64,000 bases of DNA, from positions 33,299 to 97,298 of the IMG/VR virus record IMGVR_UViG_3300010396_000042; one strand, written 5' to 3'. The stretch comes from a virus. Under the pieces are notes generated by a model, which was not told the DNA's origin, did not search any database, and saw nothing but the letters and a program-made list of their open reading frames with translations. Every line of letters begins with the position of its first letter. Position 1 is the first letter of the stretch. Position numbers and translations under genes: made by a program. Below are positions 26,692-58,445 of this stretch, piece after piece.

Positions 26692-26699
26692 GGAACGCA

Positions 26700-26804: not shown

Positions 26805-26832
26805 ATCGAACGCTGAACAACTGAATACGGCA

Positions 26833-26986
26833 CCTCCCGGTGCGCAAGGCGAGGAGTTCTTCACAGTCGTCGCGGGTTCAAATCCCGTCGCCCGCAACAC
26901 GTGGGGCGTGGCTGAGCGGCCTAAAGCGCAGGGCCCACGAGGCCCTGTTCGACGGACGAGCCTCACCTGTTCTCGATCTCGGGAGG
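26833..26986 (+). ncRNA. YrlA-like Y RNA unit 4 (T arm, closed acceptor, Ser/Leu-type D arm, extra hairpin)
   Basis: GCGGG-TTCAAAT-CCCGT, CGCCC/GGGCG, TGGCTGAGCGGCCTAAAGC, CAGGGCC/GGCCCTG; closing CCTCCCG/CGGGAGG. Confidence 0.8.
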
Positions 26987-26997
26987 GACAGCATTGG

Positions 26998-27142
26998 GGT
27001 CACGCCCGGTGCGCAGGTAACGGGTCCTTCGGAATCAAGGGTTACTGGTTCGAGTCCAGTCGCCGCCCTCACCGGCGGTGTGGCTCAATTGGTAGAGCAT
27101 TGGTCTAACAACCCCGTCGCCGCTTCGATCTCGGGCGTGGCC
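26998..27142 (+). ncRNA. YrlA-like Y RNA unit 5 (T arm, 7-bp closed acceptor, D arm)
   Basis: ACTGG-TTCGAGT-CCAGT, CGCCGCC-ctcacc-GGCGGTG, TGGCTCAATTGGTAGAGC; closing GGTCACGCCCG/CGGGCGTGGCC. Confidence 0.85.
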
Positions 27143-27186
27143 ACTCTTCTCTCCTCCCACCGCATCCGTTCGATGGGAGTCGAGCC

Positions 27187-28842
27187 TTGTCCCGCTTCAA
27201 CACCCCGGCCGCCAAGCCGGCCGTCCACTCCCCGATCGCCACCCAGGCCGTGGCCACCATCAGCACCCATGAGGGCGCGCCGGGTTATGCCCGATCGGAC
27301 GCTAAGGGTGAGCTGTTTCTGCTCGCGGTCTCCAACCTGGTGGGCAAGAACACCTTCTACGAGCAGGCCGGCGCCCGTGACGAGCGGTTCGAGCGCCTCA
27401 TCCACCAGGTCGCGATCGAGGATCCCGCCTGGCTCTCACGCTTCATCCCCTGGCTGCGCGGCGAGGCCAACATGCGCACCGCGTCCCTGGTCGCGGCCGC
27501 GGAGGCGGTCAAAGCACGCCTGGACGCCGCTAAGGGGACCGCCAACAACCTCGGCGCCCAGCTCACGGTCGGCCAGCAGACCGACGAGCACACCGCGGGC
27601 GGCCAGAACCGCAAGCTGATCGATGCCGCGTGCCAGCGCGCGGACGAGCCCGGAGAGCTGCTCGCCTACTGGACGTCCCGCTACGGTCGCGCGATCCCCA
27701 AGCCGGTCAAGCGCGGCCTGGCCGACGCCGTGCGCCGCCTCTACAGCGAGCGGTCGCTGCTCAAGTACGACACCGACTCCAAGGGCTACCGCTTCGGCGA
27801 CGTCATCGACCTCGTACACCCCTCCCCCGCTGTGGACCGGCGCTGGCAGGGCGAGCTGTTCGAGCACGCCCTCGACCGCCGCCACGGGCGCGACAAACCG
27901 ATCCCCGCCGGCCTGTCCACGCTGATCGACCGCGAGCGGCTGATGGCCACACCGCTCGACCAGCGCCGCGAGACACTGCGCCGACACCCCGAGCTCCTTG
28001 CGCGCGCCGGCATGACCTGGGAGGCCCTCGCGGGCTGGCTGCAGGGCCCGATGGACGCCGAGGCGTGGTCGGCGATGATCCCGTCCATGGGGTACTTCGC
28101 GCTGCTGCGCAACCTGCGCAACTTCGACCAGGCCGGCGTGCCCGACGAGGTCGCCGAGAGCGTGGCCGCGCGCCTCGCGGACCCATCACAGGTCGCATCC
28201 TCCCGCCTGTTCCCGTTCCGGTTCTACGCCGCGCACAAGAACACCGGCTCGCTGCGCTGGGGCCACGCCCTGGAGAAGGCGCTGCGCGCGTCCCTCTCCA
28301 ACATCCCGGCGCTTCCCGGCCGCACGCTGGTGCTCATCGACCAGTCGCCGTCGATGTTCCCCGGCTTCCACTTCTCAACGCCCAGCGACAGCGACATCTC
28401 CGCCGCGGAGAAGGCCGCGCTGTTCGGCGCCGCCGTGGCGCTGCGCGCGCAGAACGCCGACCTGGTCGGGTACGGGCAGAACAACTACCGGGTGCCGTTC
28501 GGCAAGGGCGACGCGGTGTTGGAGGTGATGAAGCGCTTCCGGATGGACGACGGCACGGACACCCCGCGCGCGATGGTCGAGCACTTCCGCGGCCATGACC
28601 GGGTGCTGATCGTCACCGACGAGCAGACCGCGTACTCGAACACCGGCCGCACCGTCGACAACGCCGTGCCGGCCAACGTTCCTGTCTACACCTGGAACCT
28701 CGCCGGTTACCGGCCCGGGCACGCCCCATCCGGCACGAGGAACCGCCACACCTTCGGCGGCCTGACCGACCACGCCTTCAAGATGGTGCCGCTGCTCGAG
28801 GCGGGACGGGGCCAGCAGTGGGATGTCGTATTCGGCAAATAG
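27187..28842 (+). CDS. rsr: Ro60/Rsr TROVE-domain RNA-binding protein with vWA domain
   Basis: MSRFN..THEG..ELFLLAV..TFYE; RADEPGE; MTWEAL; ALLRNLRN; SRLFPFRF; vWA MIDAS DQSPSM and VTDEQ; TTG start with GGGAG RBS. Confidence 0.93.
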   Translation: MSRFNTPAAKPAVHSPIATQAVATISTHEGAPGYARSDAKGELFLLAVSNLVGKNTFYEQAGARDERFERLIHQVAIEDPAWLSRFIPWLRGEANMRTASLVAAAEAVKARLDAAKGTANNLGAQLTVGQQTDEHTAGGQNRKLIDAACQRADEPGELLAYWTSRYGRAIPKPVKRGLADAVRRLYSERSLLKYDTDSKGYRFGDVIDLVHPSPAVDRRWQGELFEHALDRRHGRDKPIPAGLSTLIDRERLMATPLDQRRETLRRHPELLARAGMTWEALAGWLQGPMDAEAWSAMIPSMGYFALLRNLRNFDQAGVPDEVAESVAARLADPSQVASSRLFPFRFYAAHKNTGSLRWGHALEKALRASLSNIPALPGRTLVLIDQSPSMFPGFHFSTPSDSDISAAEKAALFGAAVALRAQNADLVGYGQNNYRVPFGKGDAVLEVMKRFRMDDGTDTPRAMVEHFRGHDRVLIVTDEQTAYSNTGRTVDNAVPANVPVYTWNLAGYRPGHAPSGTRNRHTFGGLTDHAFKMVPLLEAGRGQQWDVVFGK

Positions 28843-34941: not shown

Positions 34942-35634
34942 ATGCACATCCTGCTGCAGGGCATCGTCGGCTCGACCGCGTACGGCCTTGCCGGACCCGA
35001 GAGCGACGTCGACCGCGCCGGCGTGTTCGCGCACCCCACCGCGCTGCTGTTCGGCCTATCGAAGCCCGCCGAGTCGATCGTCACCACCAAGCCCGACGTG
35101 ACGTATCACGAGGCTGAAAAAGCGTGTCGGCTCATGCTCAGCTGCAACCCGACCGCGATGGAAACCCTCTGGCTCGAGTCCTGGGAGATCAAGACCGCGC
35201 TCGGGGACGAGCTGGTCGGGCTGCGCTCCGCGTTCCTGTCGGCACGGCGCGTACGCGAGGCGTATCTGGGCTATGCGACCGACCAGTTCCGCAAGGCGAT
35301 CAACTGCGCCGACGGCTCCTTCAATTCCGACATCCCGCCGCGGCGCGCGAGCAAGCACGCCAGGCACCTGATGCGCCTGGTCGAGCAGGGGTTCGAGCTG
35401 TACGCCACCGGGCGGCTGCACATCCGGGTCGAGGACCCGCAGCGCTACATCGACTTCGGTGAACGCACCGCCGCCGACCCGCTCTCCGCGCTGCCGTATC
35501 TGACCGAGGCGCGCCAGCGCTTCGACCGCACGCCCTCAGCGCTGCCGGAGGAACCCAGAAGGGGCGCGGTCGAATCCTGGCTGCGCCGGGTGCGCGCCGA
35601 GTACTACCGCGTTCCGGCGGCCGCCGATGCGTGA
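34942..35634 (+). CDS. RlaP-like (pol-beta superfamily) nucleotidyltransferase
   Basis: GSTAYGLA.PESDVD..G; NP..E.LW; KHARHLMRL; TAAGGAAG RBS. Confidence 0.85.
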   Translation: MHILLQGIVGSTAYGLAGPESDVDRAGVFAHPTALLFGLSKPAESIVTTKPDVTYHEAEKACRLMLSCNPTAMETLWLESWEIKTALGDELVGLRSAFLSARRVREAYLGYATDQFRKAINCADGSFNSDIPPRRASKHARHLMRLVEQGFELYATGRLHIRVEDPQRYIDFGERTAADPLSALPYLTEARQRFDRTPSALPEEPRRGAVESWLRRVRAEYYRVPAAADA

Positions 35635-36259
35635 ACGCGCGCAGCTACCCGAAGCCGTGGTGTTCGATTGTGATGGGACGCTCGTCGACGTCTCCTCGAT
35701 CCGGCACCTGGTGGCCGGCGGCCCGGAGAACGGCTACCGCAAGGACTTCGACTCCTTCCACCGCGAGGCGGTCAACTGCCCGCCGCACCCATGGGTGGTC
35801 CAGGCCGCGCAGGCCGAGCACGCCGCCGGCCGCGCGGTGCTCATCGTCACCGGGCGCTGCGCCGAGTACCGCAATTCCACCGCGTTCTGGCTCGCGATGC
35901 ACGACGTGCCATCGGACGCGATGTGGATGCGGGCCCGCGGCGATTACCGGCCCGACTACGTGGTCAAGGCCGAGATCCTCGCGAAGATCCGCACGCGCTG
36001 GCGTGTGGTGCGTGCGTACGACGACAACCCAAACGTCCTGAGACTCTGGGCCCAGGAACGCATCGCGACCGTCGTCGTCCCGGGATGGGAGCTGCAGAAC
36101 GAGCACCACGACGAGGACGCGGACCGCGAGCAGTTCCGGCGCGAACGCGAGGGCCGCTGGACGGTCAGTCCACCATGCCACACTGATCACGAAGCGAGCG
36201 CGGTGCGTGACCGCGCGAACACCGAACGAGAGAGACGAGCATGGCTACCGGCACGGTGA
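35627..36259 (+). CDS. HAD phosphatase, T4 PNK 3'-phosphatase-like
   Basis: [24 protein letters not shown]. Confidence 0.85.
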
Positions 36260-38093: not shown

Positions 38094-38531
38094 TCACGCC
38101 GCGGCCCGGCGTCGCGGGTCGGTACACATGACGCGCGGCTCGTTCACGTCGCCTGTCTTCCAGCGGTAAGAACACTGATTGCAGCGTCTGTGGAAGTGCT
38201 CGGGCTCCCCGTCGCGGCAGTAATCGTCCGCGTGCTTGAGCGAGACCGAGTCCGGCGGCCGCAGCCGGCACCCGTCGCAGTACGCCATCATCGTGTCCAG
38301 GCTCGAACACTTGGGGCACGGCAGCGTCTGAGTCTTCGGTACCGGCTTCTTGCCGAGCGCGGCCGCGACTTCGTCCAGATCGAAGCGCCGGTGCCCGCCC
38401 GGCGTCGTCCCGAACGGGATCTTGCCCTGGCGTGCATAGAGCTGGACCGTGGCAGCCGTCAGCCCGAAAGCGTCCGCGACTTCCTTCGTCTTGTGGCGGC
38501 GCCCGCCCAGCGCGTCAGCCATCGCCATCAC
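38094..38531 (-). CDS. BldC-like MerR-type HTH protein with C-terminal Zn ribbon
   Basis: TKEVADAFGLTAATVQLYARQGKIP..TPGGHRRF; CPKC, CDGC, CNQC. Confidence 0.75.
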   Translation of the reverse strand: MMAMADALGGRRHKTKEVADAFGLTAATVQLYARQGKIPFGTTPGGHRRFDLDEVAAALGKKPVPKTQTLPCPKCSSLDTMMAYCDGCRLRPPDSVSLKHADDYCRDGEPEHFHRRCNQCSYRWKTGDVNEPRVMCTDPRRRAAA

Positions 38532-39477
38532 CCGCTTCCGGTGTCTCTGCAACCTTCTGAGCCTTGCAATACGCGTCGCCGCGCCCGTCCTCGAACGAGC
38601 GCAGGAGAACGAAGACCCCGTCCACCTCCCATTCCCAGGCGCGCGAGCCGTCGTCGCCGGCGATGCCTTCGATCGGACTCGCGCCCCTTCCTGAGAGGAT
38701 CACATCTGCGATCCGCAAGGCGTGCCGCTCCGGGACTGTCAGGCCGAGCAGGAACGCTGCCGCTAGCGGAGAGCTGGACTTGGCCTCGGCCTCGAACGCG
38801 AGGCGGGATCCGCCGGGCGGGAACACCACCGCGGCAGGAACGTCGCCGTCGGTCGCACCGCCCAGCAACGGTGGGTGCTGCTCGGTGTCAGCCACGATTC
38901 GCCTCCGCGGTGCCGGGATCGGCGAGCGGCACGATCTGTGCGCGCTCGAGCACCTGGTAGTGCACGACGTCGTTGTTGTCCGTGTGCCGGCGCACCAGGA
39001 CGCTGGTTCGAGCCAGATCGTCGAGCGTGCGGTAGGGGACGGCGATGCTCGGCGTCGGCGCGCCGATGAGGCACCATGCGATGACCCGGTGGGCGTGTTC
39101 CAGCTCGCCGCGCAGCCGCTCTGCCTCCGACTGCTCCATGCGCGTCTGCCTTCCCCAGGGCGGCTTGTGTTATCGCCGCCTGAAAAGCGTGAGCGCCTCC
39201 CGGCGGGGGTCGGGAGGCGCCACAGTAATCCGCTCGCCATGCGTTCGCGACGATATCGCTGCGCCGCCGCGAATTCACGATGGCCCGTCGTTTTGCCCGG
39301 TTCGTCGGCGTGTCACCGCGCCATTTCGTTAGGCCGCGCATATCAAAACTCATTCGGGACTCTTCAGGCCGGGACGGCGGATCGAAAAGGACTACGGTGG
39401 AAAACGAAGGCGCCGCCGACCCGGTGCGGATACACCAGGCCGACGGCTAAACACCACGCCGCCCAAGGAGCGACGAA

Positions 39478-40683
39478 GTGCCTGCCAGAAACCTTAGTGG
39501 CGCCAAGCGAACCGGTCTCGACCCTGGCACCGACACGCCGTCGGGCCCACGCCACGGCCGCCCCGATCCGATCGGCGCCGGCTGGACCGTCCTGACCGCC
39601 GCGATCGGTGCCATGGCCGCCTTGATCGCCCTCGGCGGCATGATCCTCAGTTTCCGCGCCGTCTCCGTGAAGATGATCCCGTCCTTCGGCGCGCAGTGGG
39701 CCTGGCTCGTGCCGATCGTGGTCGACCTGAGCGTCTTCGTGTTCTCCGGCGTCGACCTGGTCCTGGCTCGCCTCGACATGAGCCACCCCCTGGCTCGCTG
39801 GACCGTCTACGGCGCGACCGGCGGCACCGTGTGGCTCAACTACTCCGCCGGCAGCGACGCGGCCGGCCGCGTCGCGCACGTGCTGATGCCCTCGGTGTGG
39901 GTCGTGTTCGTCGAACTCATGCGGCACGTGGTTCGCCGCCAGGTCCTGCTGGCCACCGACAACCACCGCGAGAGCGTCCCGGCCGCCCGCTGGCTGCTCG
40001 CCCCCTACTCCACGCTCAAGCTGTGGCGGCGCATGGTCCTGTGGCGGGTGTACTCCTACCCGCGCGCACTCGATCAGGAGCGCGTGCGGCTGGCCCGGAT
40101 CGCGGCGGCGCGCGAGCAGCTCGGCCGCACGTGGCGCTGGCGCCTGGACGGACCTACACGTCTGTCGATCGCTCTGGGCGAGCGCCACACTCCGGCGATC
40201 GACCTAGCTCCAGCAGCCGACCAAAGCGACACCCTCCAGAGCACCGGGCCGGCCGCTGCGCGCTCTACCGCCGCGCCCCGCCTACCAGAGTCCTCTGCTC
40301 CGGCGACAGTGAAGCCCTCTGCTAATGCGAGAGCGGACCACTCCGATAACCAGAGCGCTCTTCCCGCTCCGTCAGCACAGAGCGCGAACTCCTCTGGCCA
40401 GAGCACCGGCGCATCTGGCGGCAGCCACTCCGGCGATGCTCTGGAGTACCTGAGCCCAGAGGAGACCGACGCTCTGCGCCGCCTCACGGCCTCCTGCGCT
40501 CCGCACATTCCTTCCCAGGGCGCCATCCGCAACGCTCTGCCGGCCGGGCCCGACGGCAAGCGCTGCGGAGCGACCCGCGCGATCCGCATCCAGAAGGCGC
40601 TGCGGGAGCGGGCAGAGCACCCTGACGCTCCGGACCCGCTCAGCGACGCCCTCGACTCAGAGTTCGCAGCCACCAACACCTGA
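39478..40683 (+). CDS. DUF2637-like membrane protein (actinomycete plasmid/AICE spread module)
   Basis: SF.A..AWLVPIVVD..WLN..AH..P..VE..R; RWLLAP..T..LWRRMVLW; C-terminal IRNAL..GATRAIRI. Confidence 0.8.
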   Translation: MPARNLSGAKRTGLDPGTDTPSGPRHGRPDPIGAGWTVLTAAIGAMAALIALGGMILSFRAVSVKMIPSFGAQWAWLVPIVVDLSVFVFSGVDLVLARLDMSHPLARWTVYGATGGTVWLNYSAGSDAAGRVAHVLMPSVWVVFVELMRHVVRRQVLLATDNHRESVPAARWLLAPYSTLKLWRRMVLWRVYSYPRALDQERVRLARIAAAREQLGRTWRWRLDGPTRLSIALGERHTPAIDLAPAADQSDTLQSTGPAAARSTAAPRLPESSAPATVKPSANARADHSDNQSALPAPSAQSANSSGQSTGASGGSHSGDALEYLSPEETDALRRLTASCAPHIPSQGAIRNALPAGPDGKRCGATRAIRIQKALRERAEHPDAPDPLSDALDSEFAATNT

Positions 40684-40797
40684 CGCCCTGCTCTGTTCGC
40701 TCCGCAGAGCGGCAGAGCGCAGAGCCACCCGTCGCGGCAGAGGGCCGGCAAGAGCAGAGCCCTCGAGCGAACCCCACCACGCGCAGGCGTCCAGAGC
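40237..40797. repeat. CAGAGC/GCTCTG repeat field, candidate clt (cis-acting locus of transfer)
   Basis: CAGAGC at 40705, 40713, 40720, 40755, 40792 intergenically, plus many copies in both orientations in the 3' end of the DUF2637 gene. Confidence 0.6.
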
Positions 40798-41048
40798 GCC
40801 GCACACCCGGAGACCCCAGATCCGATGACCACTGCATCTCCTCTCCTTCGCCCGCATCGTGCCGCCGGCTACTTCCAGATTCCGCCCGAGTGCCCCGAGC
40901 GCCCGGCAACGGCGTCCAGCCGCCGATCGCGACGCCCCGGCACTGTCGCGCGTCCTGTCGTCGCCGCTGTCGTCGTGTCGCCAAACGGGCCTCCGACCTC
41001 GCCTCATGCCACGCGACAGGGTCCTACCAGCCATCCCGGAGGCACCAG

Positions 41049-42425
41049 GTGACAGACACGACGACGACACCCGCTCCAGGCCAGCTGCGCGAGCCCAGCC
41101 CCGAACCCGAACCGCAAGCAATCAGCACGCTGCGCGCCGACCGGGAGGCAGCCGAACCCAAGCGGCACTCCATGCGCCGCGTGGCCATCCACGGGACCAC
41201 CGTCTCCGCGGTAGGCGGCGCGGCCACGCTCGCGCACGTCGCCGGCGCCCCCGTCGCCGGCGGCGTGGTCGGCGGCCTGGCCGTCGTCGCCTCCGGCGTG
41301 GTCGCAATTGCCAAACGCAAGCCGGGACCGCGCCGTACCCGCCGTATCCGCTCGGGTTCGGGCTCGCGCACTCGCGCCGCGGCCGCGCGCAGCATCACGA
41401 AGCGCGCGTCCACGACGGCGCGGCCTTCGGCCGGCCGTGCCGCACCGGTACGACGAAGGTCCATCCGCGCGGCGCCCACCGGAGCTTCGCGCCGCCCAGG
41501 CGGACCCGCCACCCGCGCTGCGCCCCGCCGCGCGACCGCCGGCGCCCCGAGCGCACTACGACGCACGGTGCGCCGCCACCACGGCCGTTCACCGGCGCCC
41601 GCACCCCGCCGTGCCAGCCATCCTGGTATCCGCCACGGGCGCCGGCACGGCGGACTATCAACCGGCCGCGCCCACGCGCGAGCCAGCCGCAACGCGGCAC
41701 GCCGCAGCATGGCCGCAACGTTCACGGCCCGCCGCACCCGAGCCGCCACGAGAACCGTCCAGGCGCGGCGTGCGGCGCGCACCGTGACCCGCCGCATGGC
41801 CCGCGGATGGCGCAACGGCATCGCCCTCGGAAAGCGCTACACGCAGTTCATCGACCCCACGCCGAAGAAAACCACCGCGCCCAGGGCGGCGACCGCCAAG
41901 AAGCCACCGGCGAAAACAGCCAAAGCCGCCCCAGGAAAACCAGTTAGCCCGCCGAAGAACTCCCCAGCGCGCAAAACAACCGCCCCGCCCGCAAAGAAAA
42001 CCGCACCTGGGGCCATCCCCAAACCCGGACGCCCCATCGCCGCCCCGGGCCTACCGAAAGCGAGCCCTCCCATGGCAGAGACCGCCGATATCGGCGTAGC
42101 AGCCGTCACAGAAGCCATCCGCGAACACATCGCCGGATTCGAAACACAGCACATGACGCAGATCGCAGGGTTCCTCGGCGGACTCGACGAGATGCTCACC
42201 ACGCTCGGCCAGTCCCTCTCCACCGTCGCCCAGCGCTGGGCCAATGAAGAACCCGTCGACATCGCCGTCACCGAGCATCTCCAGCAGCTCGCCGGCCACG
42301 CCGGCACGCTCGGCGAGTGGGCACGCCAGACCGAGCAGCTCTTCCGCATGGCCCACGACACCGAGATCACCCGCCTGCAGAGCCCCCGTCCCAACGAGCA
42401 GCACTGGGACGTTTCCAACCAGTAG
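41049..42425 (+). CDS. Basic Arg/Ala/Lys-rich membrane-anchored protein with helical C-terminal domain (transfer module)
   Basis: TM hairpin, histone-like low-complexity middle, C-terminal H..EI.RL..PRPNE..WDV. Confidence 0.6.
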   Translation: MTDTTTTPAPGQLREPSPEPEPQAISTLRADREAAEPKRHSMRRVAIHGTTVSAVGGAATLAHVAGAPVAGGVVGGLAVVASGVVAIAKRKPGPRRTRRIRSGSGSRTRAAAARSITKRASTTARPSAGRAAPVRRRSIRAAPTGASRRPGGPATRAAPRRATAGAPSALRRTVRRHHGRSPAPAPRRASHPGIRHGRRHGGLSTGRAHARASRNAARRSMAATFTARRTRAATRTVQARRAARTVTRRMARGWRNGIALGKRYTQFIDPTPKKTTAPRAATAKKPPAKTAKAAPGKPVSPPKNSPARKTTAPPAKKTAPGAIPKPGRPIAAPGLPKASPPMAETADIGVAAVTEAIREHIAGFETQHMTQIAGFLGGLDEMLTTLGQSLSTVAQRWANEEPVDIAVTEHLQQLAGHAGTLGEWARQTEQLFRMAHDTEITRLQSPRPNEQHWDVSNQ

Positions 42426-42446
42426 TCCCGGAAGGAGACCGCGACC

Positions 42447-44435
42447 ATGACCGTCAACCGTTCCGGCGTCCTCGATCTCGAGGTGCACAGCGCCGTCACC
42501 ACCCCGCTGGGCTACGCCTCCGCGCTCTACACGGCGGCCATGGCCGCGTCCTTCTGGCACCGACCCCTCGCCATCGACACCATCGCCGTGTGCGCCGCCA
42601 TGGGTGTCACGCTCGCCGCGATCGCACGACGCACACACCCCACCGTCCTGATGCACCTGGGTGTCACCCTGTTCGCCTCCGCCGCGTGGATGGCCTGGGC
42701 GCAGGCCGTCTCCCCGTTCACCTCCCGCGCCGCCATCCCCTTCGCGATCCTGCTCGTGCTACTCGGCCCGATGTACTGGGCCGTGACCGCGGCCGACCGC
42801 CGCGAGCGGCGGGCAGCACTGGAGAACGCCAGCCGCCTGGTCGGCAAGAAAGCCGCGCGCGGCGACTGGCCCGGCATGCTCGCCGCCCTCGGCGCCCCGG
42901 GCATCGACGTCGAGCGCACCCTGGAAAGCCGCGCCGGATACGTCAAGATCCTCAAACTTCCCGCACACGGGCACGTCACCTACGAACGCATCAGGGGCCT
43001 GATCAAGCAGTTGGAAGTCGTGCTCGCCGTCCAACGCGGCTGCGTGCGCGTCGTACCCGGGGAAGACGCCTCCCTGGTCCAGGTCCACGTCGTCACCCGC
43101 GACGTGATGGCGGAGACGATCGACCTGCCCGACGACGACACCCCGATCAGCGTCAACCGCCCGTTCCCCGTCGGCGTCGACGAGACAGGCGAGGAATTCC
43201 AGCTGCTGTGGCGCCAGATCGCGACGATCATCGCCGGTCTGCGCGGCAAGGGAAAGAGCAACCTCGCCAACGTGCTGATCGCCCAGCTCGCCCGCTGCGT
43301 CGACGTGGTCATCTGGGTCATCGACCTCAAGGGCGGGCGCACCGCGCGCCCCTGGCTCGCGCCCTGGCTCGAAGGACGCACCGCCCGGCCCGTCGTCGAC
43401 TGGGTCGCCACCACGGTCGACGAGGCCAACCTGATGCTGGAGACCGCTCTGAAGGCCGTGCAGATCCGCGCCCACTCCGGCGCCGGCGGCGAGATGATCG
43501 AACCCACCGCTGAGCAACCCGCGATCATCATCCTCTGCGAGGAGGTCGCCACACTCGTCGGCATGCACGCGGAAGCAGCGTCCAAGCCCCGATCGCTCCT
43601 GATGTCCATCACCCAACTCGGCCGCTCTGAAGCGGTCGACCCCATCCTGATCACCCAGCGCAACACGGTCACCATGACCGGCAGCGGCGACTTGATCAGC
43701 CAGTGCCCGCGACGCATCGCGCTCGGCGTCAGCTCGGTCGAGGACGCGCGCCTGGTCACCGGGGAGACGGCCAGCGCCGCCGCCATCGCCGCACTGAGGC
43801 ATCCCGGCTCGATGTACGTACGCGACGGCGATGTCACCCCGGTGCCCGTCAAGGGTTTCCGGGTCGTCTTCGAACGCATCTCCACGCTGGCCGAACGCCG
43901 CTCCCGCATCCGCCCAGGCCTGGAACCTTCCCTCGAGTCCGCGCTCGGCGATGTCTACACCAAGCGGTGGGAACGCGCCGGACACCTGGTCGACGGCAGC
44001 GTCCTGCCGGCCAAGCAACTCGCCACCAGCGTGGCGGCGGCGCCCGTCGCGGCCGCGACACTCCCCCTCATCCCCAAGCCGCCCGCAGACGCCCGGCCCA
44101 CCTACCGCACCGGCCAAGGCATTCCGATCCCGCGCGGAAACGCGAAGCTCTCCAAAACCGAAGTGGACGCTATGTTCGCCGACCTCGAACGCGACCTGAC
44201 CGACGTGACGGGCAACGCCCGCGCTGTGCATCCTGGCCGCGCCCGCATGCTCGGCATCCTCGAAGCGGCCGGCCGAGCCGGCCTCGGGCCGAGCGAACTG
44301 ACGCGGCGCCTGAACGAGGCGGGCATCGACTGTGTACGCCAGACGGTCCACACGTGGCTATCCGACGAAGCACAGGCAGGCAACGTCATCTCACTCGGCG
44401 GCGGCATCTACTTGCACCGGACGCATGCCCCGTGA
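42447..44435 (+). CDS. traB: TraB-like FtsK/SpoIIIE conjugative DNA translocase
   Basis: N-terminal TMs, Walker A GLRGKGKS, IDLKGG, Walker B IIILCEE, GRS..TQR, C-terminal wHTH. Confidence 0.8.
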   Translation: MTVNRSGVLDLEVHSAVTTPLGYASALYTAAMAASFWHRPLAIDTIAVCAAMGVTLAAIARRTHPTVLMHLGVTLFASAAWMAWAQAVSPFTSRAAIPFAILLVLLGPMYWAVTAADRRERRAALENASRLVGKKAARGDWPGMLAALGAPGIDVERTLESRAGYVKILKLPAHGHVTYERIRGLIKQLEVVLAVQRGCVRVVPGEDASLVQVHVVTRDVMAETIDLPDDDTPISVNRPFPVGVDETGEEFQLLWRQIATIIAGLRGKGKSNLANVLIAQLARCVDVVIWVIDLKGGRTARPWLAPWLEGRTARPVVDWVATTVDEANLMLETALKAVQIRAHSGAGGEMIEPTAEQPAIIILCEEVATLVGMHAEAASKPRSLLMSITQLGRSEAVDPILITQRNTVTMTGSGDLISQCPRRIALGVSSVEDARLVTGETASAAAIAALRHPGSMYVRDGDVTPVPVKGFRVVFERISTLAERRSRIRPGLEPSLESALGDVYTKRWERAGHLVDGSVLPAKQLATSVAAAPVAAATLPLIPKPPADARPTYRTGQGIPIPRGNAKLSKTEVDAMFADLERDLTDVTGNARAVHPGRARMLGILEAAGRAGLGPSELTRRLNEAGIDCVRQTVHTWLSDEAQAGNVISLGGGIYLHRTHAP

Positions 44436-44642: not shown

Positions 44643-44702
44643 CGTCTGTTGGGTCGTCTATGGGATCGACCTGGATGAACCTCATAGACGACCCAACAGA
44701 CG
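44643..44702. repeat. Perfect 20-bp inverted repeat with 20-bp spacer
   Basis: CGTCTGTTGGGTCGTCTATG / CATAGACGACCCAACAGACG. Confidence 0.85.
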
Positions 44703-44736
44703 AAAAGGAGGTCTCCCATAGCCGTGGGAGACCTCC
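44703..44736 (-). terminator. Intrinsic terminator for leftward transcription
   Basis: GGAGGTCTCCCA-tagccg-TGGGAGACCTCC preceded by AAAA. Confidence 0.6.
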
Positions 44737-45506
44737 GCACCGAGCACTGCACCCCGACTAAGGATCGGCTCCGGTACCCGACCTCACAAGAAGGCGGTTG
44801 CAGGCAATCCAACCCCGCACTCCGGGCTCAGACAAGGACCTCGAGCCAAGTCCGAAAAACCCGCGGGCTGTACGCGGAACCCGGGCAGTGCCCCTGGGAC
44901 GTATCCGGCTCCGTCGCCCGGCACCAGCTCGGCGTCACCCGGTCAGCTCCCGACCCAGCGTCTTCGACGGCAGTTTCACCAGGCGGATGCCCGGCATTCC
45001 GCGCCGTCAGCCTACTGCCGCACGATCCACACCCCGATCTCCTTGTCGGCGCGCTCACGGGATCCCTCGAGCGCCCGGGCGTATCGAGACGCGAGCAGTT
45101 CGTCGATCACTGCTGAGTCAGGCATCTTCCTCGTCCTCCCGTACTGCTCGACGCAGGTCACGCAGCCATCGCGGTGGTGGTGAGCGGCGCCTGCGGTGCC
45201 AGGCGATGCGCGGCTGCGGCTCGTCGTCGTCCTGGTAGTCCTGCGCGTCGGGCATTGCCACCGTTGCTCTCCTCAGGCCAACGAAACCGGCCTATCACTT
45301 GCCCCTGGTCCCCGAGGGTGCAACTGGACTTGCATCCGTTCGGCGCGCCGGAATCTTCGAACCTGCTTGCTGCGTTGATCAGCAGGGGTCACACTCGCCC
45401 CAGAAGATCGAAGGGCGTCCCGGCCGCGAACCGGAACGCCTTGTCATCGACCCTCTTACGCCGCTCTGACTCCAGGCTATCCCCCGGCCAGGTCAGGAGC
45501 CGCCGT

Positions 45507-46559
45507 ATGCCCCGCATCGAGTCCCGCGCGTCGCGTCGCCACGCCGACCAGCTCTACGCGTCCCAGCCGTCCGTGCCGCTGCGCAAGCCGTGTCCGGGCC
45601 GCTGCAACGACCCGTGGCGTGCCGCCCAGGCGGTGCGCCTGCAGGACGCGGTGCCACACGACCTGGTGCCGATCGACGGCGAACCGGTGTGGTGCACCGC
45701 GTGCCGCAACAAGCTCTATTACGCGCTGCTGGGGATGCCGTATCTCACGGTGCTGGTTCAGCTCGAGGTCGCGAACGCGACACCGGCCGAGGCCGAACGC
45801 GTCTCCGGCACCGGCGATAAGCCCCTGCACGACCGCGAGGCGTACACGCTGCTGATCGACACGGTGTGGTCGACGCTGACCGGCTACGAGGACCAGGTCC
45901 GCTACGAGCGCAGCTTCAGCCCGCGCCCGGTGGCGGTGCGCCGCGGCCGCGCGCTGCAGGACGCCGCGGCGTTCCTCACCCGCCAGGTCGACTGGTTCCT
46001 CACGGACCGCCCGGACGACGACGAGGGCCCGGATCCGGAGACCGGCCGGCACACCGAGACCAGCGCCCGCGGGTTCGCCGACCGTATCGCCGGCCTCGAG
46101 CGGCGCCTGCAGCGCGCCACGCACCAGGACGAGCGGCACCCCGAACGGCGTCCCACCATCCCGTGCCCGAGCCCGGACTGCGACCTGATGGCCCTGGAGT
46201 ACGAGCTGGATTGGGAGAAGAAGGCCACCGGCCTGACACGCTGCCGCGCCTGCGGAGCCCGCCACACGCCCGAGCAGATGACCCGGTGGCTCTCCCTGCT
46301 GGCCCACCACGGCCGCCGGTGGCCCGCCGAAGTGCGCGAGTACTACGGCATCCCAGAACCTGAAGATCCGGATAGACCCGTGCCGCGGTGTTCTGCGCCG
46401 AGCGATTCCAGCCGCGATACAGCATCCGAGGAGTGCGTGCTTGACAGCTACGGCTCCTGCGAAACACACCGCGATGACATCTCGCCGTGCCTCTCCGACG
46501 GCGGTAGCCGGTCCCCCGAATCCGAAGGAAACGCCGATCCGGACGGAGCGGACTCGTGA
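45507..46559 (+). CDS. Zn-finger hypothetical protein (possible late regulator)
   Basis: AGGAG RBS; CPGRCN, WCTAC, CPSPDC, CRACG. Confidence 0.65.
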   Translation: MPRIESRASRRHADQLYASQPSVPLRKPCPGRCNDPWRAAQAVRLQDAVPHDLVPIDGEPVWCTACRNKLYYALLGMPYLTVLVQLEVANATPAEAERVSGTGDKPLHDREAYTLLIDTVWSTLTGYEDQVRYERSFSPRPVAVRRGRALQDAAAFLTRQVDWFLTDRPDDDEGPDPETGRHTETSARGFADRIAGLERRLQRATHQDERHPERRPTIPCPSPDCDLMALEYELDWEKKATGLTRCRACGARHTPEQMTRWLSLLAHHGRRWPAEVREYYGIPEPEDPDRPVPRCSAPSDSSRDTASEECVLDSYGSCETHRDDISPCLSDGGSRSPESEGNADPDGADS

Positions 46560-47863: not shown

Positions 47864-49354
47864 GTGATGGCCGCACCCCGAGAACTCGACCTCACTGTCA
47901 CCCTGGACGACGCGTGGCGTACGTATGAGAAGCACCTGCTCGCCCGCGTCGACGCCGACACGTTCAGCGCCCAGTCCGCCCGCGGCTATCTCGCCTACTC
48001 CCGGCGACTCGTCGACCACCTCGGCCCCCAGCGCACCTGCGACAGCGTCGAGGCAAGCGAGATCGTCGCATGGCTCGCGCACTACCGTTCCAGCGGTGCC
48101 CGCCGACCGACCTACGTCCAGAAGGGCGCCGGCCCGGCGACGCTTCGCCACTGCCACAAGTCCGCCAAGGGCCTCTTCGCGTTCGCCGACTCCAACCGGT
48201 GGCTACGGGAGAACCCGATGCGCGACACCGTCGCACCTCCACTGCCGCGCAAGACCGCCGGACCCGAACGCGCGGCCCTCAGCCGCCCGGAACTCGAAGC
48301 GCTCATCGCGGCGGCCCGCACCGGCAAAGGCTCCTACCGCGGCGACCGCGGAGCCTGGGTGCGCGACGAGATCGTGATCCGGCTCACCGGCGAATCAGGG
48401 CTACGTAACGGCGACGTGCAGAACCTCGACCTCGGTGACATCGAAGCCGACCCCGCGGGCCACTGGGTGGCCCAGATCCGCCGGGGCAAGGGCCGCAAGG
48501 CACGCACCGTTCCGCTCACCGACGCCTGCGCCACACTGATCCGCGACTACATCGACCAGTGGCGCCCGCAGCCGGCCGGCACGCCTGACCGCTACGACAA
48601 GAATCACCACCTCATCAAGGGCGACGCGCAAGCGCTTCTGCTGTCGCCGGACCGGCACCGTTTCAACGCTGCGATGGTCCGCCGGATCGTGGAGCGCTGC
48701 GCACAGTCCGCGCTCGGCCGCCACTATGTGCCGCATGGCCTGCGCCACACCACCGGAACTCTGCTCGCCCGCGAGGCGAAGGCCGACCCGGCGCTGATCG
48801 CGCATATCCTCGGCCACTCCGACATCTCGGTGACATCCGTCTACCTGGACACTACGACCGACGAGGCCGCCGCCGCCGTAAACCGGCGCAAGGTCGGCGC
48901 GCGGGCCAAGGCGCCGAAGGAACTGCCACCGAGCAAGGACGATCCGCGCTGGCCGGAGTGCGGCACCCGCGAGGGCTGGAATCGGCATAAGCGTGAGCGC
49001 ATCCCGCGGTGCTCGCCATGCCGCATGTGGAAACGAGAGGACACGCAACGGGCGGAGCTCAACAGGCTGGAGCGGGACCTCGCGCGAGCGCACCGTACCA
49101 TCGCCGATCAGGCCGAGCAGATCCGTAAACTGCGGGATCAGGCGCAGCGTAGCGCCGTGGGTCTCAGCGCGCGGCCTCGGGGTCGCTGCCCAGTGTGCAC
49201 ACGCCTGATCTCAGTGACGGAGAAGGGCGTGATGCGGGTGCACGACTGTCCCGGCACAGGCCAGCCGCCATTGGCGATTCTCTCGACCGCGCCAATCGTC
49301 GGTGTCGAAGCCAGTCAGTCATCATTCGTGGACGATCTCGCAGGTGCAGCATGA
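47864..49354 (+). CDS. XerC/D-like tyrosine recombinase with C-terminal Zn/coiled-coil extension
   Basis: Complete catalytic set: GLR, GKG.K.R.VP, HGLRH, LGHSD, TSVY. Confidence 0.9.
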   Translation: MMAAPRELDLTVTLDDAWRTYEKHLLARVDADTFSAQSARGYLAYSRRLVDHLGPQRTCDSVEASEIVAWLAHYRSSGARRPTYVQKGAGPATLRHCHKSAKGLFAFADSNRWLRENPMRDTVAPPLPRKTAGPERAALSRPELEALIAAARTGKGSYRGDRGAWVRDEIVIRLTGESGLRNGDVQNLDLGDIEADPAGHWVAQIRRGKGRKARTVPLTDACATLIRDYIDQWRPQPAGTPDRYDKNHHLIKGDAQALLLSPDRHRFNAAMVRRIVERCAQSALGRHYVPHGLRHTTGTLLAREAKADPALIAHILGHSDISVTSVYLDTTTDEAAAAVNRRKVGARAKAPKELPPSKDDPRWPECGTREGWNRHKRERIPRCSPCRMWKREDTQRAELNRLERDLARAHRTIADQAEQIRKLRDQAQRSAVGLSARPRGRCPVCTRLISVTEKGVMRVHDCPGTGQPPLAILSTAPIVGVEASQSSFVDDLAGAA

Positions 49355-49635
49355 CCACGCCCGGGTTCGACCGCGATGATCCGCTGCTGCGCCCGCTGAC
49401 GATTAAGCAGGCCATGGAGTTGACGGGACGTAGCGACCGCACGATCGAGCGGTGGATCCACGACGGCCGGCTGCGCAAGGTCACGCTGCAGGGCGATCCG
49501 CCGCAGCAGGTGCTGATCGAGCGCGAGGTCCTCGAGGTCGAGCGCGCCACCCGACAGGCGTCCCGCCGCGGCCGGCCGCGCGCGAAGACCACCGACACTC
49601 CGTCCGGGGACGAGGTCATTGACGCTGGTGGGTAG
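49351..49635 (+). CDS. Excisionase-like HTH protein
   Basis: LTIKQAMELTGRSDRTIERWIHDGRL. Confidence 0.75.
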   Translation: MTTPGFDRDDPLLRPLTIKQAMELTGRSDRTIERWIHDGRLRKVTLQGDPPQQVLIEREVLEVERATRQASRRGRPRAKTTDTPSGDEVIDAGG

Positions 49636-49757
49636 GGTGGCGCACACTTCGTCATAGTTCGGCGTCGTGTGCACCGCGCGCGGTCGCCCTAACCAAGGCT
49701 CCGCGGGTGCATACACAGCCCACGGGGCCTTCGGCTTTCTGCCCCTCGCCGAACCTT

Positions 49758-49830
49758 GCCCCGGTCGTCTAGCGGCCTAGGATCTCCGGTTCTCAGCCGG
49801 CCAGCACCGGTTCGAATCCGGTCCGGGGCG
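49758..49830 (+). tRNA. tRNA-Glu (CTC)
   Basis: GCCCCGG/CCGGGGC; GTCTAGCGGCCTAGGA; loop TT-CTC-AG; ACCGG-TTCGAAT-CCGGT. Confidence 0.85.
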
Positions 49831-49831
49831 C

Positions 49832-49905
49832 GGCGCCGTCGTCTAGCGGTCCAGGACCCCGGACCTTCAATCCGGCCAGCACCGGTTCGAATCCGGTCGG
49901 CGTCA
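49832..49905 (+). tRNA. tRNA-Glu (TTC) with C33
   Basis: GGCGCCG/CGGCGTC; CCGGA-CCTTCAA-TCCGG; same T arm as the neighbour. Confidence 0.8.
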
Positions 49906-49946
49906 CACCGCATCAGCAATCGCTGACACACGATCAGGAGTCCCCA

Positions 49947-50156
49947 GTGCAGATCCACAAGCACGCGTCCGTCGACCAGTACCAGGGCACGGTGAAGGTC
50001 GTGTTCGAACCGGACGAGAAGGTCGAAGTCGTGCTCGGCAACGGCGACATCGTAGAGGTGTCTCACGACGGCACCTGGACACTTCGCGACTCCCGCGCCG
50101 CCGGCGAGTTCGACCAGTGGCTCGCGCGCGGCACCTTCGAAGCGGACGCGGCCTGA
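49947..50156 (+). CDS. Small hypothetical protein
   Basis: AGGAG RBS, codon bias. Confidence 0.6.
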   Translation: MQIHKHASVDQYQGTVKVVFEPDEKVEVVLGNGDIVEVSHDGTWTLRDSRAAGEFDQWLARGTFEADAA

Positions 50157-50829
50157 TACGTCCGGTCCGGCGCTGTGCAGGCGCATCAGCCATGACCCGC
50201 GCAACGTACGCGGCGAGCTCTTGCGAACTCCTGCACCCGACCCAGAATCGGGCGGCACCGGCCCGGATGCACAGTCTCGCCGTCGCCGTGGGAAGCGGCG
50301 GAGAGCACGCACCGGCAGCGGTCACACGCGAAACCGGCAGCGTTCATGAAACCCCGGCGGTCAGCTCGGTCGAGGCGGAGGGCAAGCCGCGAAGGCGAAC
50401 CCGGGGAAGCCGACGACGCCGGGCCGACCGACCGCCGCACAGAATTCGAATGGCCTGGTCCGCCGATGTGCCGGCGGATGCCGCGCCGTGCCGGCAGCCC
50501 CGCACGGCATCCCGTTCTTCCCGCGCGTCCCCGCACTGGGGGCGAGGGCGCGCGGGAACTCCACCCGTCACCGGGAAGGCGGTCGCGATGAACCAGCGCG
50601 GCCCCCGCATCGTCGCGACCGCGCTCGTCGGGCTCGGGTTCCTCGCCCTGATCGCCGCAGCGACCGCCGAAGCAATCCTCGTCTACGCAGCCCAGCTCGC
50701 CATCGGCGTCGCCGAACGGCTCTAAACGAGCGATCACGGTGTTGCATCAAAGCAACATCTGGCCACCACTGCACCAATGTTGCGAATACGCAACACGTGC
50801 TCTTGAGTCGTTGAGAGCAGGTGACTCGG

Positions 50830-55622: not shown

Positions 55623-58388
55623 GTGTCGATCCCGTCGAATCTGACCACGATCACGGTCACCGGCGAGTTCCTGGACTCCAACGGCAACCCACTGATCGGC
55701 AGCGTCTCCTTCGCGCCGCCGGTGGACATCTACGACGCCGCTGGCGGCGCCATCATCGGCCGCGTCCCCTATGTGGCGACGCTGAGCCCGTCGACCGGCG
55801 CGTTCAGCATCACATTGCCGTGCACCGACAACGCCGCGATGAGCCCCACGAACTGGGGCTACACCGTCACCGTCAACCTCACGGCCCTCTCCTCCGGGCC
55901 GTATTCGTACGCGAACGTCTCGATCCCGCACACCGCGGGCAACGGCACCACCGTCGATCTCTCGCAACTGCTGCCGCCCGGCGTGCCGACCACGATCACC
56001 CCGAACACCTACGGCCAGCTCGCCGTCTCCCAGACCTGGGCCGGCGTGCAGAGCTACCAGCAGGCCGTCAACGGCACGTTCCTGCAGGCCAACGTCTCCG
56101 GCGACACCAACCAGCGCCTCTCGATCGACACCAGCGGCAAACACCAGTGGGGCCCTGGAAACGCGGCCCTGGACACGGACCTCTACCGGTCCGCCGCCGG
56201 CGTCCTGAAGACCGACGGCTCGTTCGTCGTCGGCGGCACACTGTTCGCCACGAGCATCGCGCCGATCGCAGGCGTGAGCGCCTGGTTCAACGTCAAAGCG
56301 GCCGCGTACGGCGCGAAAGGCGACGGCTCCACCAACGACACCGCCGCGATCAACGCCGCGCACGCCGCGGCCCGCGCCGCCGGCGGCGGAGTCGTCTACT
56401 TCCCGCCCGGCACCTACATGGTCGCCCCGGTCAGCTCGACCACCGCCGCGATCGTCTGGAACAACGGCACCACCGGGGACAAGAACATCCGCTGGATCGG
56501 GGACAGTGCCGGCTCCTCCGTGATCAAACGCTCCTCCGCCGGACCGATCCTGTCGATGTCCGGGCCGTCCACCGACACCACCGGCGCCACGCACTGCGAA
56601 TACTGCGGCCTGGAAGACCTGCTGCTGAGCGGCAACAACCTCACCGGCGCGCTCATGCAGACCTACTACGCCGATGACCTGAGTTTCAGCCGGGTGCGCT
56701 GGGCCAACAGCGCGGATGTGGCGCAGGACTGCGCCGAATACTGGGACAGCCGCTACTACCACTGCGTGTTCGACTCCAATGGTTCGACCACCGCGAACAC
56801 CACCGCCCCGAACCTGTGGCTACGCAACAGCGCCGCCACCTCAGGGTTCGGCTACAGCGCGGATACCACCAACAACATCTACCTGCTGGGCTGCCGCTTC
56901 GAGCAGTACAAGACCGGCGCGATCCGCATGGAACGCGGCCTGGGCGTCAACTCGGGGCAGCCCTACAGCATCTACCTGGTCAACACGAAGATCGAGACCG
57001 CGAACATCAACGGCGGCCCGCACATCTTCGTGGACACCACCGCCCGCGACATCCGCGTGAAGAACATGCACGCCTATGCCGGCGGATTCTTCTCTGGCTA
57101 CTCGACCGCCCAGGACGTGATCACCTTCGGGCCCCAGTTCGGGTGCCTCGAGGACATCCTGATCTTCAACGCGACCGCGGCCGCCGTCGTCGCCAACGGC
57201 GTCACCGTCAACGCGCCACTGGCCGGCGCCACCGTCACGCTGGAGAACGTACGCGGCTCCTACACCGGCGGCGCCACCCCCACCGGCGCGCACATCAACT
57301 TCGGGACGAACACCGGCGGCTTCGCCGTGCGCAACTGCACCGCGGACAACGGAACCCAGTTCGCCGGCAACACACCCAGCAACGCGACCGCCAACGTACA
57401 GACCGGCAGCAGCGCCACCGGCCTGATGTCGCTGACCAACGCGACCACGGTCACCGGAGTCCTCAACTCCGACTGGCAGCTGATCGAAACCGGCGGCGCC
57501 TCGATCGCCTTCGGTATCCGCACCGTCGGCGACACCAACAACCGGTTCACCACCGACGCCTCCGGCAACATGTCCTGGGGCCCGGGCAACGGCGCAGTCG
57601 ACACCACGCTGGGCCGCAACGCGGCCGGCGTGCTGCAGACCGGGCAGTCCTTCCGCGCCGCGAACAACATCGTCGCCGTCCAGAACCTGCGCGCCGGATC
57701 CTCCTCCTCGCTCGGCTCCGACCTGGTCGGCGGTATCGAGCTGGCCAACGCCACCACCACGCCAACCGGCAACCCAAGCGGCGGCGCCGTCGCCTACGGC
57801 GTGAACGGCACGCCGTGGCTGCGCGACCCCAACGGCGCGATCAGCGCGATGATCTCCCCGTCGGAGTTCTCCATCTCCCCCACCGGGTGCCTCGGCGAGA
57901 CGATCCCCCGCGCCCTGGTCAACTCCGCGGCGCAGGCCATCGGCGCCACCACCGGCACCGTGTACATGGCCGGCGTGTGGCTGCCCGCCGGCACGAAGAT
58001 CTCGAGCCTGAACTGGGTGACCGGTTCGACCGCTGCGGGCACCCCGACGCACTGGTGGCTCGGGGTCGCCGACTCCGGCGGCGTGCAGCGCGCGCACAGC
58101 GTGGACCACACCACCTCCGCGATCGCCGCCAACAGCCTGGTCACCACGGCGATGACCGCGGCATACACGACCACCTACACCGGCCTGTACTACTTCCTGC
58201 TGTCGGTCACCGCCACCACCAACCCGACCTCGTCGGGTATCGCCGCGCCGACCAACATGAACGTCACCAGCCCGCTGCTCGCCGGCGTCTCCCCGTCCGC
58301 TGCGCAGAGCGCGCCCGGCACGGACGGCACCACCACCTACACGGCTCCGTCCAGCGCAGGCGGCGTCCCGTACATCTACGCGACCTGA
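55623..58388 (+). CDS. Tailspike/tail-fibre-like protein with pectate-lyase-like beta-helix
   Basis: N-terminal carrier domain; FNVK..YGAKGDGSTNDTAAINAA..GGGVVYFPPGTY; Thr/Gly/Asn-rich. Confidence 0.8.
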   Translation: MSIPSNLTTITVTGEFLDSNGNPLIGSVSFAPPVDIYDAAGGAIIGRVPYVATLSPSTGAFSITLPCTDNAAMSPTNWGYTVTVNLTALSSGPYSYANVSIPHTAGNGTTVDLSQLLPPGVPTTITPNTYGQLAVSQTWAGVQSYQQAVNGTFLQANVSGDTNQRLSIDTSGKHQWGPGNAALDTDLYRSAAGVLKTDGSFVVGGTLFATSIAPIAGVSAWFNVKAAAYGAKGDGSTNDTAAINAAHAAARAAGGGVVYFPPGTYMVAPVSSTTAAIVWNNGTTGDKNIRWIGDSAGSSVIKRSSAGPILSMSGPSTDTTGATHCEYCGLEDLLLSGNNLTGALMQTYYADDLSFSRVRWANSADVAQDCAEYWDSRYYHCVFDSNGSTTANTTAPNLWLRNSAATSGFGYSADTTNNIYLLGCRFEQYKTGAIRMERGLGVNSGQPYSIYLVNTKIETANINGGPHIFVDTTARDIRVKNMHAYAGGFFSGYSTAQDVITFGPQFGCLEDILIFNATAAAVVANGVTVNAPLAGATVTLENVRGSYTGGATPTGAHINFGTNTGGFAVRNCTADNGTQFAGNTPSNATANVQTGSSATGLMSLTNATTVTGVLNSDWQLIETGGASIAFGIRTVGDTNNRFTTDASGNMSWGPGNGAVDTTLGRNAAGVLQTGQSFRAANNIVAVQNLRAGSSSSLGSDLVGGIELANATTTPTGNPSGGAVAYGVNGTPWLRDPNGAISAMISPSEFSISPTGCLGETIPRALVNSAAQAIGATTGTVYMAGVWLPAGTKISSLNWVTGSTAAGTPTHWWLGVADSGGVQRAHSVDHTTSAIAANSLVTTAMTAAYTTTYTGLYYFLLSVTATTNPTSSGIAAPTNMNVTSPLLAGVSPSAAQSAPGTDGTTTYTAPSSAGGVPYIYAT

Positions 58389-58445
58389 CCCATGCGCGAT
58401 GCGGCAGGCGGCATCCGCACCGTACGAGCGCCGGGAGGTGCAGCG

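Follow-up and report, generated by a model that had tools for sequence, protein, structure and literature searches.

We analysed a 64,000-nucleotide stretch of viral DNA (the window), which comprises bases 33,299 to 97,298, i.e., the last 64 kb, of the 97,298-bp IMG/VR virus record IMGVR_UViG_3300010396_000042. The record, called G000 where it is set beside its relatives, is of metagenome type and classed as linear, with a CheckV completeness estimate of 85%. The carrier is a temperate tailed phage, and its putative host is a high-GC filamentous actinomycete. GC content stays between 66 and 73% across the whole record, and genes were called from GC content at third codon positions (GC3), nearly all of them on the plus strand. 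Within the window we focused on three consecutive genes that the preliminary description had presented as a Streptomyces-type conjugation module embedded in a phage genome; all three reading frames are open exactly where it had placed them (Table 1). The triad is operon-like in its arrangement and, as judged from sequence, would encode a DUF2637 membrane protein, a basic and putatively DNA-binding membrane protein, and a TraB/FtsK-type hexameric pump for double-stranded DNA (dsDNA).

The product of the third gene, P0001, matched an FtsK/SpoIIIE-like PHROG (E = 1.9e-42), and its best NCBIfam match was plasmid_TraB (NF041214; E = 8.4e-13) over residues 22–459. The AlphaFold model of this protein (25 homologues), with a mean predicted local distance difference test score (pLDDT) of 80, runs from four N-terminal helices (residues 20–137) through a small alpha/beta domain and a RecA-like core to a C-terminal unit (residues 596–657). 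Hydrophobic segments at residues 40–61, 67–85 and 87–117 predict an association with the membrane. The Walker A motif GxxGxGKS occupies residues 264–271, and its G267, G269, K270 and S271, together with the acidic E366, are invariant across the 25 homologues, the nearest of which share 78% (P0004) and 74% (P0005) identity. When the model was compared with the PDB using Foldseek, FtsK motor domains ranked first (E = 1e-16, probability 1.0), followed by the TcpA coupling protein, EccC/EssC and HerA. The C-terminal unit, modelled with a pLDDT of about 90, consists of three helices (596–611, 615–624 and 631–644) and two strands (647–651 and 654–657), an arrangement that makes it a predicted winged helix; sequence-level searches, including Pfam, gave nothing significant for it. 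The TraB-like FtsK ATPase with transmembrane segments and a C-terminal winged helix-turn-helix that had been proposed here is thus recovered by PHROG, NCBIfam, Foldseek and the structural model, the winged helix by the model alone.

No viral contig was matched when P0001 served as the sole query, whereas an alignment-based scan found relatives, and the profile search for TraB homologues yielded nine IMG/VR records and 18 genome loci (27 loci). Three related records were compared in full: G001 (128.8 kb, 100% complete), G004 (127.5 kb, 100% complete) and G002 (59.6 kb).

The first gene of the triad passes the Pfam gathering cut-off for DUF2637 with 71 bits against 22.8, and reached 74.8 bits in a six-frame search. 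Hydropathy places hydrophobic segments at residues 32–99 of its product; the membrane domain spans residues ~32–200, and the tail is of low complexity. Homologues of this protein occur in 341 actinomycete plasmid records and in the phages VWB and Gilgamesh. For placing DUF2637 in the loci, the Pfam model was more sensitive than jackhmmer; in G001 and G002 the gene directly precedes that of the basic protein, and in a further locus, G006, it lies ~4 kb 5' of TraB.

The second gene may begin at one of its two later start candidates, since the first 280 bases look non-coding. Its product contains 93 lysine and arginine residues against 26 aspartate and glutamate residues, with a net charge of about +60 over residues 145–390. 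A single hydrophobic, presumably transmembrane segment (residues 114–143) precedes a basic region of ~250 residues rich in Arg, Ala, Thr and Pro, which is followed by an acidic C-terminal domain. No family match was obtained for the protein in Pfam, PHROG or NCBIfam. Its C-terminal domain (42084–42422, ~110 residues) is found directly 5' of the TraB homologue in 22 of the 27 loci, and it ends in a nearly invariant tail of the NPRPxExxWDV type in 20 aligned homologues (alignment A2). In the AlphaFold model of this domain (pLDDT 87), a confidently predicted helical hairpin is followed by a tail that is disordered. A tail of this kind beside an FtsK-family ATPase recalls the substrate tails that dock on EccC in type VII secretion, an analogy that is unproven. 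A PDB fold search with the domain gave nothing below E = 0.5, with ESAT-6/CFP-10 and EsxA at E = 1–2.4; the fold match is non-significant, and the type VII analogy therefore has the status of a lead.

Hexamers, heptamers and octamers were all counted along the entire record in an unbiased scan, in which CAGAGC/GCTCTG came out as the top hexamer cluster, with 13 copies in 442 bp (40351–40792) where 0.35 would be expected per 500 bp (Poisson p = 1e-16); two outliers beyond this cluster complete the array listed in Table 1. Nine copies belong to the low-complexity tail of the DUF2637 gene, where eight keep to a single frame that fits the codon bias, and the other six fall within ~100 bp past its stop codon, including three in tandem directly after the stop. 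The related phages carry different words at the equivalent place: TGCGAC in G002 (19 copies, the top cluster of that record), CGCGAC in G004 (19 copies) and GGTTCC in G001 (9 copies). The copies of G002 mostly read xxT-GCG-ACx and thereby place a wobble T in Gly, Ala, Arg, Thr, Pro and Ser codons of a gene with a GC3 of 83%. Such use of wobble T across six amino acids suggests selection on the DNA word rather than on a peptide repeat. In each of the five loci that allowed the DUF2637 domain to be placed (G000, G001, G002, G006 and L028), the locus-wide top hexamer cluster lies between this domain and the C-terminal domain of the basic protein. By analogy with plasmid transfer systems, the CAGAGC array is a candidate clt-like loading site, or else an operator.

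The three fully compared relatives have many genes in common with the record (24–75% identity), including those for the 966-aa tail protein, the HTH_31 regulator and the divergent recombinase as well as minor tail, lysis-region and several early genes. The pair of basic protein and TraB is present in all three at 36–46% identity, which is close to the median of the common genes. In a quick maximum-likelihood tree of 33 TraB-like proteins, whose long branches elsewhere are unreliable, G000 grouped with G001 (Shimodaira–Hasegawa-like approximate likelihood ratio test, SH-aLRT, 92) and G002 with G004 (100), and all four formed one clade (100). A whole-record search revealed no att-like repeats bounding the module. 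Because such sites are missing, the relatives carry the module, their TraB proteins form one clade and the divergence is typical of the common genes, we consider the module inherited within the phage lineage. This agrees with the preliminary description, which had treated the module as belonging to the phage and had named bounding repeats and absence from close relatives as the signs that would speak for an independent insertion: neither was seen, and all three related records have the module. Very probably, then, we are dealing with an inherited TraB-type module that is homologous to the transfer locus of the virion-encoding element pZL12, with which it is compared below.

Other parts of these genomes have fared differently. 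The large terminase of the record found no match in the nine viral records with TraB homologues. At the DNA level, megablast of the 39–50 kb region, which holds the module, gave no match among GenBank phages. Since tail and early genes are common while the terminase is unmatched, the head and packaging modules differ, and from sequence comparison it seems that they were exchanged within the lineage. When five isolate genomes with TraB homologues were searched for the terminase phrog_9, three had none and two had it on other contigs, which does not inform on the context of the homologues. As a separate observation, G004 carries ~33 copies of a CACCTGGCC-type word in its first 400 bases (contig 8–394, L038), which may reflect either a tandem array at the terminus or an error of assembly.

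Table 1. Features of the module and its surroundings (window positions unless the record is named).
Feature	Position	Strand	Evidence and remarks
Virion and lysis block	57–23683 of the record, upstream of the window		Strong PHROG matches throughout
HTH_31 regulator	After the virion/lysis block		
Divergent tyrosine-recombinase-like protein, 498 aa	28560–30056 of the record (L003:8560–10056)	−	After the lysis genes
MerR/HTH_17-type DNA-binding protein	38094–38552	−	Pfam MerR E 2.4e-8, HTH_17 E 3.7e-8; 5' of the module
83-aa open reading frame	38888–39139	−	GC3 0.87; divergent from the DUF2637 gene, 338-bp gap
DUF2637 membrane protein, 401 aa	39478–40683	+	Pfam PF10935 E 1.4e-19
CAGAGC/GCTCTG array (consensus about sCAGAGCr), 15 copies	40171–40792	both	Word scan
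Basic membrane protein	40890–42425	+	Composition; start candidates 40890, 41049 or 41172
TraB/FtsK-like dsDNA translocase (P0001), 662 aa	42447–44435	+	Membrane helices, ATPase, predicted winged helix
Perfect 20-bp and 12-bp inverted repeats	44643–44736		After traB
461-aa protein	45174–46559	+	TraB neighbour here and in G001; also in G004
Tyrosine integrase	47864–49354	+	Pfam E 7.7e-24
Excisionase	49351–49635	+	TIGR01764 E 1.2e-6; ATGA overlap with integrase
Two tRNA-Glu genes (CTC and TTC anticodons)	49758–49906	+	ARAGORN

As to function, we propose that TraB would assemble in the membrane at hyphal contacts or septa of the lysogen or the infected mycelium, where its winged helix would read the CAGAGC array on phage DNA. 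ATP hydrolysis would then pump unprocessed, double-stranded phage DNA into the neighbouring compartment or the recipient hypha, with the DUF2637 and basic proteins acting as Spd-like partners. The replication and integration that an actinomycete integrative and conjugative element (AICE) requires could come from the phage origin, integrase and excisionase, and the phage would spread both as virions and capsid-free. Taken as a whole, the reading of the locus as an inherited TraB-type pump module that moves phage DNA without a capsid is fairly probable. Its central step, the actual movement of phage DNA between compartments or mycelia without capsids, is a closer call, and we lean slightly towards it.

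Several observations weigh against this proposal. P0001 scores 47.7 bits with NF041214, for which the cut-off is 800, and 15 bits (E = 0.017) with Pfam FtsK_SpoIIIE (PF01580), for which the gathering threshold is 24; several of its homologues do carry PF01580. On these scores, P0001 is to be regarded as a distant relative of plasmid_TraB and not as an equivalog. The position of the word arrays in five of five loci, for which the interval lengths give a joint chance of ~1e-5, refers to an interval that was defined after the data had been seen. In a pre-set test, the top cluster fell within −3.5 to +0.8 kb of TraB in 12 of the 27 loci where 31% was expected, a non-significant result (p = 0.09). 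Each array is partly situated in coding sequence of low complexity, and a repressor might instead use the array as its operator. No GntR regulator of the TraR/Kor type was found. The record, moreover, is an estimated 85% complete. FtsK-like genes also occur in other Streptomyces phages, e.g., the Hiyaa group, and it is possible that the gene serves ordinary phage biology.

Such an ordinary role could be the loading of prespores at sporulation septation, the segregation of an episomal prophage, superinfection exclusion or the manipulation of host chromosome segregation. PHROGs indeed classes the family of P0001 under moron/host takeover, but the best curated family is plasmid TraB and not chromosomal FtsK or SffA. 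The FtsK-like genes annotated in several Streptomyces phages of 80–130 kb and the many regulators in the record that are tied to host development, such as a WhiB-LuxR fusion, would suit these roles; the gene order and the partner protein, however, match the transfer locus of pZL12, and DUF2637 partners are typical of conjugative Streptomyces plasmids. Another segregation device could also be useful to a phage in which no ParA/ParB was found, but a private word array beside a private winged helix follows the TraB–clt logic (PMC4447253). Weighing these points, we regard a role of the pump in other phage biology as rather unlikely, and we retain capsid-free DNA transfer as the preferred reading.

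That reading can be taken further. The lineage might consist of phages that are at the same time AICEs: after excision and replication from the phage origin, each TraB winged helix would load on its private array (CAGAGC, TGCGAC, CGCGAC or GGTTCC), and TraB would pump the genome capsid-free across septa or into other mycelia, while the basic partner would coat or pilot the DNA and dock on the ATPase through its NPRPxExxWDV tail, as type VII substrates do on EccC. In this full form, the scheme is a long shot.

The preliminary description had named an independently inserted AICE remnant as the alternative and had seen no integrase boundary. Integrase, excisionase and tRNA-Glu genes were found, however, in a block that begins 3.4 kb 3' of traB, and for this reason the alternative was revived and tested. 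It would hold that the DUF2637 gene, TraB, the 461-aa gene, the integrase and the excisionase are a recent, independent AICE or plasmid insertion, or its remnant, next to phage-borne tRNA-Glu genes and without a role in phage life. The resulting tra ... int-xis-tRNA order is that of pSAM2-type elements. Nevertheless, an inserted element would here abut the 5' side of the tRNAs, an unusual arrangement, and a short-word BLAST of positions 49300–50700 against the whole 97-kb record revealed no second copy of the tRNA/att region, the sole match being that of the two T-arms with each other. The block is missing from the closest relative, G001, which makes it mobile relative to the rest, but G001 is colinear with the record through g91, the triad, the 461-aa gene, g108, g114 and g118. 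Because this colinearity holds without an integrase at this place (the sole integrase-family match of G001 lies elsewhere, near the lysis genes), the block is an extra of this phage and not the edge of the module, and the genes to the right of the tRNAs (g108, g114 and g118) belong to the phage lineage and not to a host flank. The earlier statement thus needs correction as to the presence of an integrase, while the conservation of the module does not extend to the block. A separately mobile cassette for integration is one possible identity of the block, the attP region of this phage another. Its two tRNA genes abut without a spacer and have an identical 27-nt T-arm in common; among GenBank phages the integrase has distant relatives alone.

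The 461-aa protein was considered as a possible Rep and rejected, as no Rep family signal was present in Pfam, NCBIfam, PHROGs or the atlas. The protein is 36% identical to its colinear counterpart in G001 and 30% to that in G004, and it matched PHROG 1467, a family of unknown function (E = 7e-6); nothing informative was found in Pfam, NCBIfam or GenBank phages, and its atlas matches are unnamed viral clusters alone. A discrete AICE insert was accordingly rejected on the missing att repeat, the missing Rep signal and the triad without adjoining integrase in G001. With a TraB divergence equal to that of other common genes and the four phage TraB proteins monophyletic, the insertion alternative is already largely refuted by the att search, the relatives and the tree, and we consider it very unlikely. 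Finally, a chimeric assembly or a host flank, with phage and conjugation genes on separate molecules, might be suspected in a linear, incomplete metagenome-type record in which no end repeats were found, but it is scarcely credible given that at least three other independent records with genes in common on both sides of the module, as well as sequenced circular plasmids and phage ZL12, display the same association, and that GC content is even along the record, with no step or anomaly at the module.

On the 5' side of the triad, the MerR/HTH_17-type protein may regulate the module, and the 83-aa open reading frame had no match in Pfam or NCBIfam. The inverted repeats after traB are most likely terminators closing the operon; they are not kept in the relatives, and nothing resembling a clt-type site is conserved 3' of traB among them.

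The phage context of the module is real, although the arrangement is not quite the one first described, in which the module lay between early and virion genes. The virion block, with the small and large terminase subunits, portal, protease, major capsid protein, adaptor, tail protein, tape measure protein, 966-aa tail protein and endolysin, is situated upstream of the window, and the genes just downstream of the module are non-virion genes save for one pectate-lyase-like gene. The first genes of the record encode the small and large terminase subunits, and the nearest GenBank relatives of its terminase (36%) are those of phiBT1/TG1-type Streptomyces phages. The maps of phiBT1/TG1-type phages begin at the terminase, and the contig begins at the same place. 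The 498-aa recombinase that follows the lysis genes matched Pfam in its C-terminal motif region alone (E = 2e-4); it is kept in G002 and G004, with a Pfam integrase-family match at the equivalent place in G001, and could be the ancestral integrase of the lineage or a dimer resolvase.

The non-structural arm in the window includes a helicase, the WhiB-LuxR fusion, a GT2 synthase, a Ro60/TROVE protein, RlaP, a PNKP-type phosphatase and an iteron cluster. The iterons, seven copies of a GAACACCGCGCA-type word inside a 318-aa gene (window 12218–12432), form the second strongest word cluster of the record, outranked by CAGAGC among hexamers, and are probably the phage origin. Just 5' of the Ro60/TROVE gene (window 27187–28842; Pfam E = 5e-14), ARAGORN called an odd "tRNA" with a 4-nt anticodon (region 26555–28842), and the two fit a phage-borne Ro60 with Y-RNA-like, tRNA-like RNAs. 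A few kilobases from it, the gene of an RlaP-family nucleotidyltransferase (PF10127, E = 1e-18) overlaps that of a PNKP-type HAD phosphatase (PF25109, E = 2e-19; window 34942–36259); this RNA-repair-like pair is kept in G004 at 54–64% identity. Further downstream, window positions 55623–61308 encode a 921-aa pectate-lyase-like protein (55623–58388; weak PHROG tail-spike matches) and a 743-aa protein with a DMFA2_C domain (E = 6e-61), with a 210-aa enoyl-CoA-hydratase/ClpP-like protein between them. These are possible depolymerase or receptor-binding genes, remote from the tail block.

Elements of this kind are already known, and the combination of virion and conjugative spread, proposed in the preliminary description, has precedents. 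In 2010, Zhong et al. (J Bacteriol 192:3747) reportedly described the plasmid-phage pZL12, an experimental precedent for a phage-borne transfer locus. Their study of pZL12/phiZL12 is cited in PMC3583192 and PMC4487206, and SpdB2-like genes, i.e., Spd homologues, were noted in actinophages in 2015 (PMC4447253). To these, the present locus adds a single TraB clade in four large phages of related origin, word arrays that differ between phages but hold a fixed position in the module, where they offer a testable candidate for the loading site of the pump, and a conserved partner domain with a C-terminal tail motif. If the module works as proposed, temperate phages of mycelial actinomycetes would gain a second, capsid-free route of spread. 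Receptor-based resistance would not stop such a route, and phage, plasmid and AICE would become harder to tell apart. Estimates of phage host range would be affected, as would the picture of gene flow between antibiotic producers.

Compared with known systems, P0001 resembles FtsK/SpoIIIE (PDB 6T8B, 2IUS and 2IUT) in the fold of the motor domain and in a predicted C-terminal winged helix like the FtsK gamma domain. It differs from them in sequence (about 21% identity), in a short N-terminal region with four helices, and in being encoded on a mobile element alongside partners of its own.

The TraB-clt logic and the Spd complex of Streptomyces plasmids are described in PMC4447253. With the TraB/Tra/TraA proteins of pSVH1, pIJ101 and pSAM2 treated there, P0001 has in common the membrane anchor, the FtsK-like ATPase and a predicted C-terminal DNA-recognition domain; membrane partner proteins extend the likeness, and the nearby short-word array is a candidate counterpart of the 8-bp clt repeats. 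In contrast to those systems, in which the site lies at the 3' end of traB, the candidate site here precedes traB and is located where the DUF2637 gene ends; a tailed phage of 97 kb is the carrier, and the family score is 47.7 against 800 bits.

Similar gene sets occur on plasmids. DUF2637 and FtsK are found together with a GntR regulator on an 18-kb Streptomyces plasmid. On a 94-kb circular plasmid of S. anulatus, DUF2637 is accompanied by a large protein and a TraB-like gene, and a terminase follows 3 kb downstream; in related 86–94 kb Streptomyces plasmids DUF2637 is likewise the first gene and a terminase is nearby. In GenBank phages, tblastn matched Thermobifida phage P1312, the Hiyaa group, Gilgamesh and phage ZL12.

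A further comparison is that with pZL12 (GQ919031). Like the phage described here, pZL12 is a virion-encoding element with the order membrane protein, large protein, FtsK-like ATPase (73c-72c-71c): the FtsK-like 71c is preceded by the 766-aa 72c and this by the membrane protein 73c. As judged from gene order, 71c-73c are putatively traA-traC. P0001 aligns with pZL12.71c over residues 21–510, a stretch that starts in the membrane region and takes in the complete ATPase (26% identity, E = 2e-23), and the C-terminal domain of the basic protein aligns with pZL12.72c (E = 2e-8). In contrast, pZL12.73c does not resemble the DUF2637 protein, identity is low, and between the two virion modules there is no relationship as far as tested. 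The mode of maintenance differs as well. pZL12 and pSLE1 are phage-like plasmids with ParA/ParB (PMC4487206), and pZL12 is a circular plasmid prophage, whereas the record and its relatives carry tyrosine recombinases and the record also an excisionase; ParB_N and ParA-type AAA_31 were not found in G000–G004, of which the record is 85% complete. Given the recombinases and the missing ParA/ParB match, the lineage looks integrative rather than plasmid-borne, and the locus therefore adds to the plasmid-type pZL12 an integrative example without recognisable ParA/ParB.

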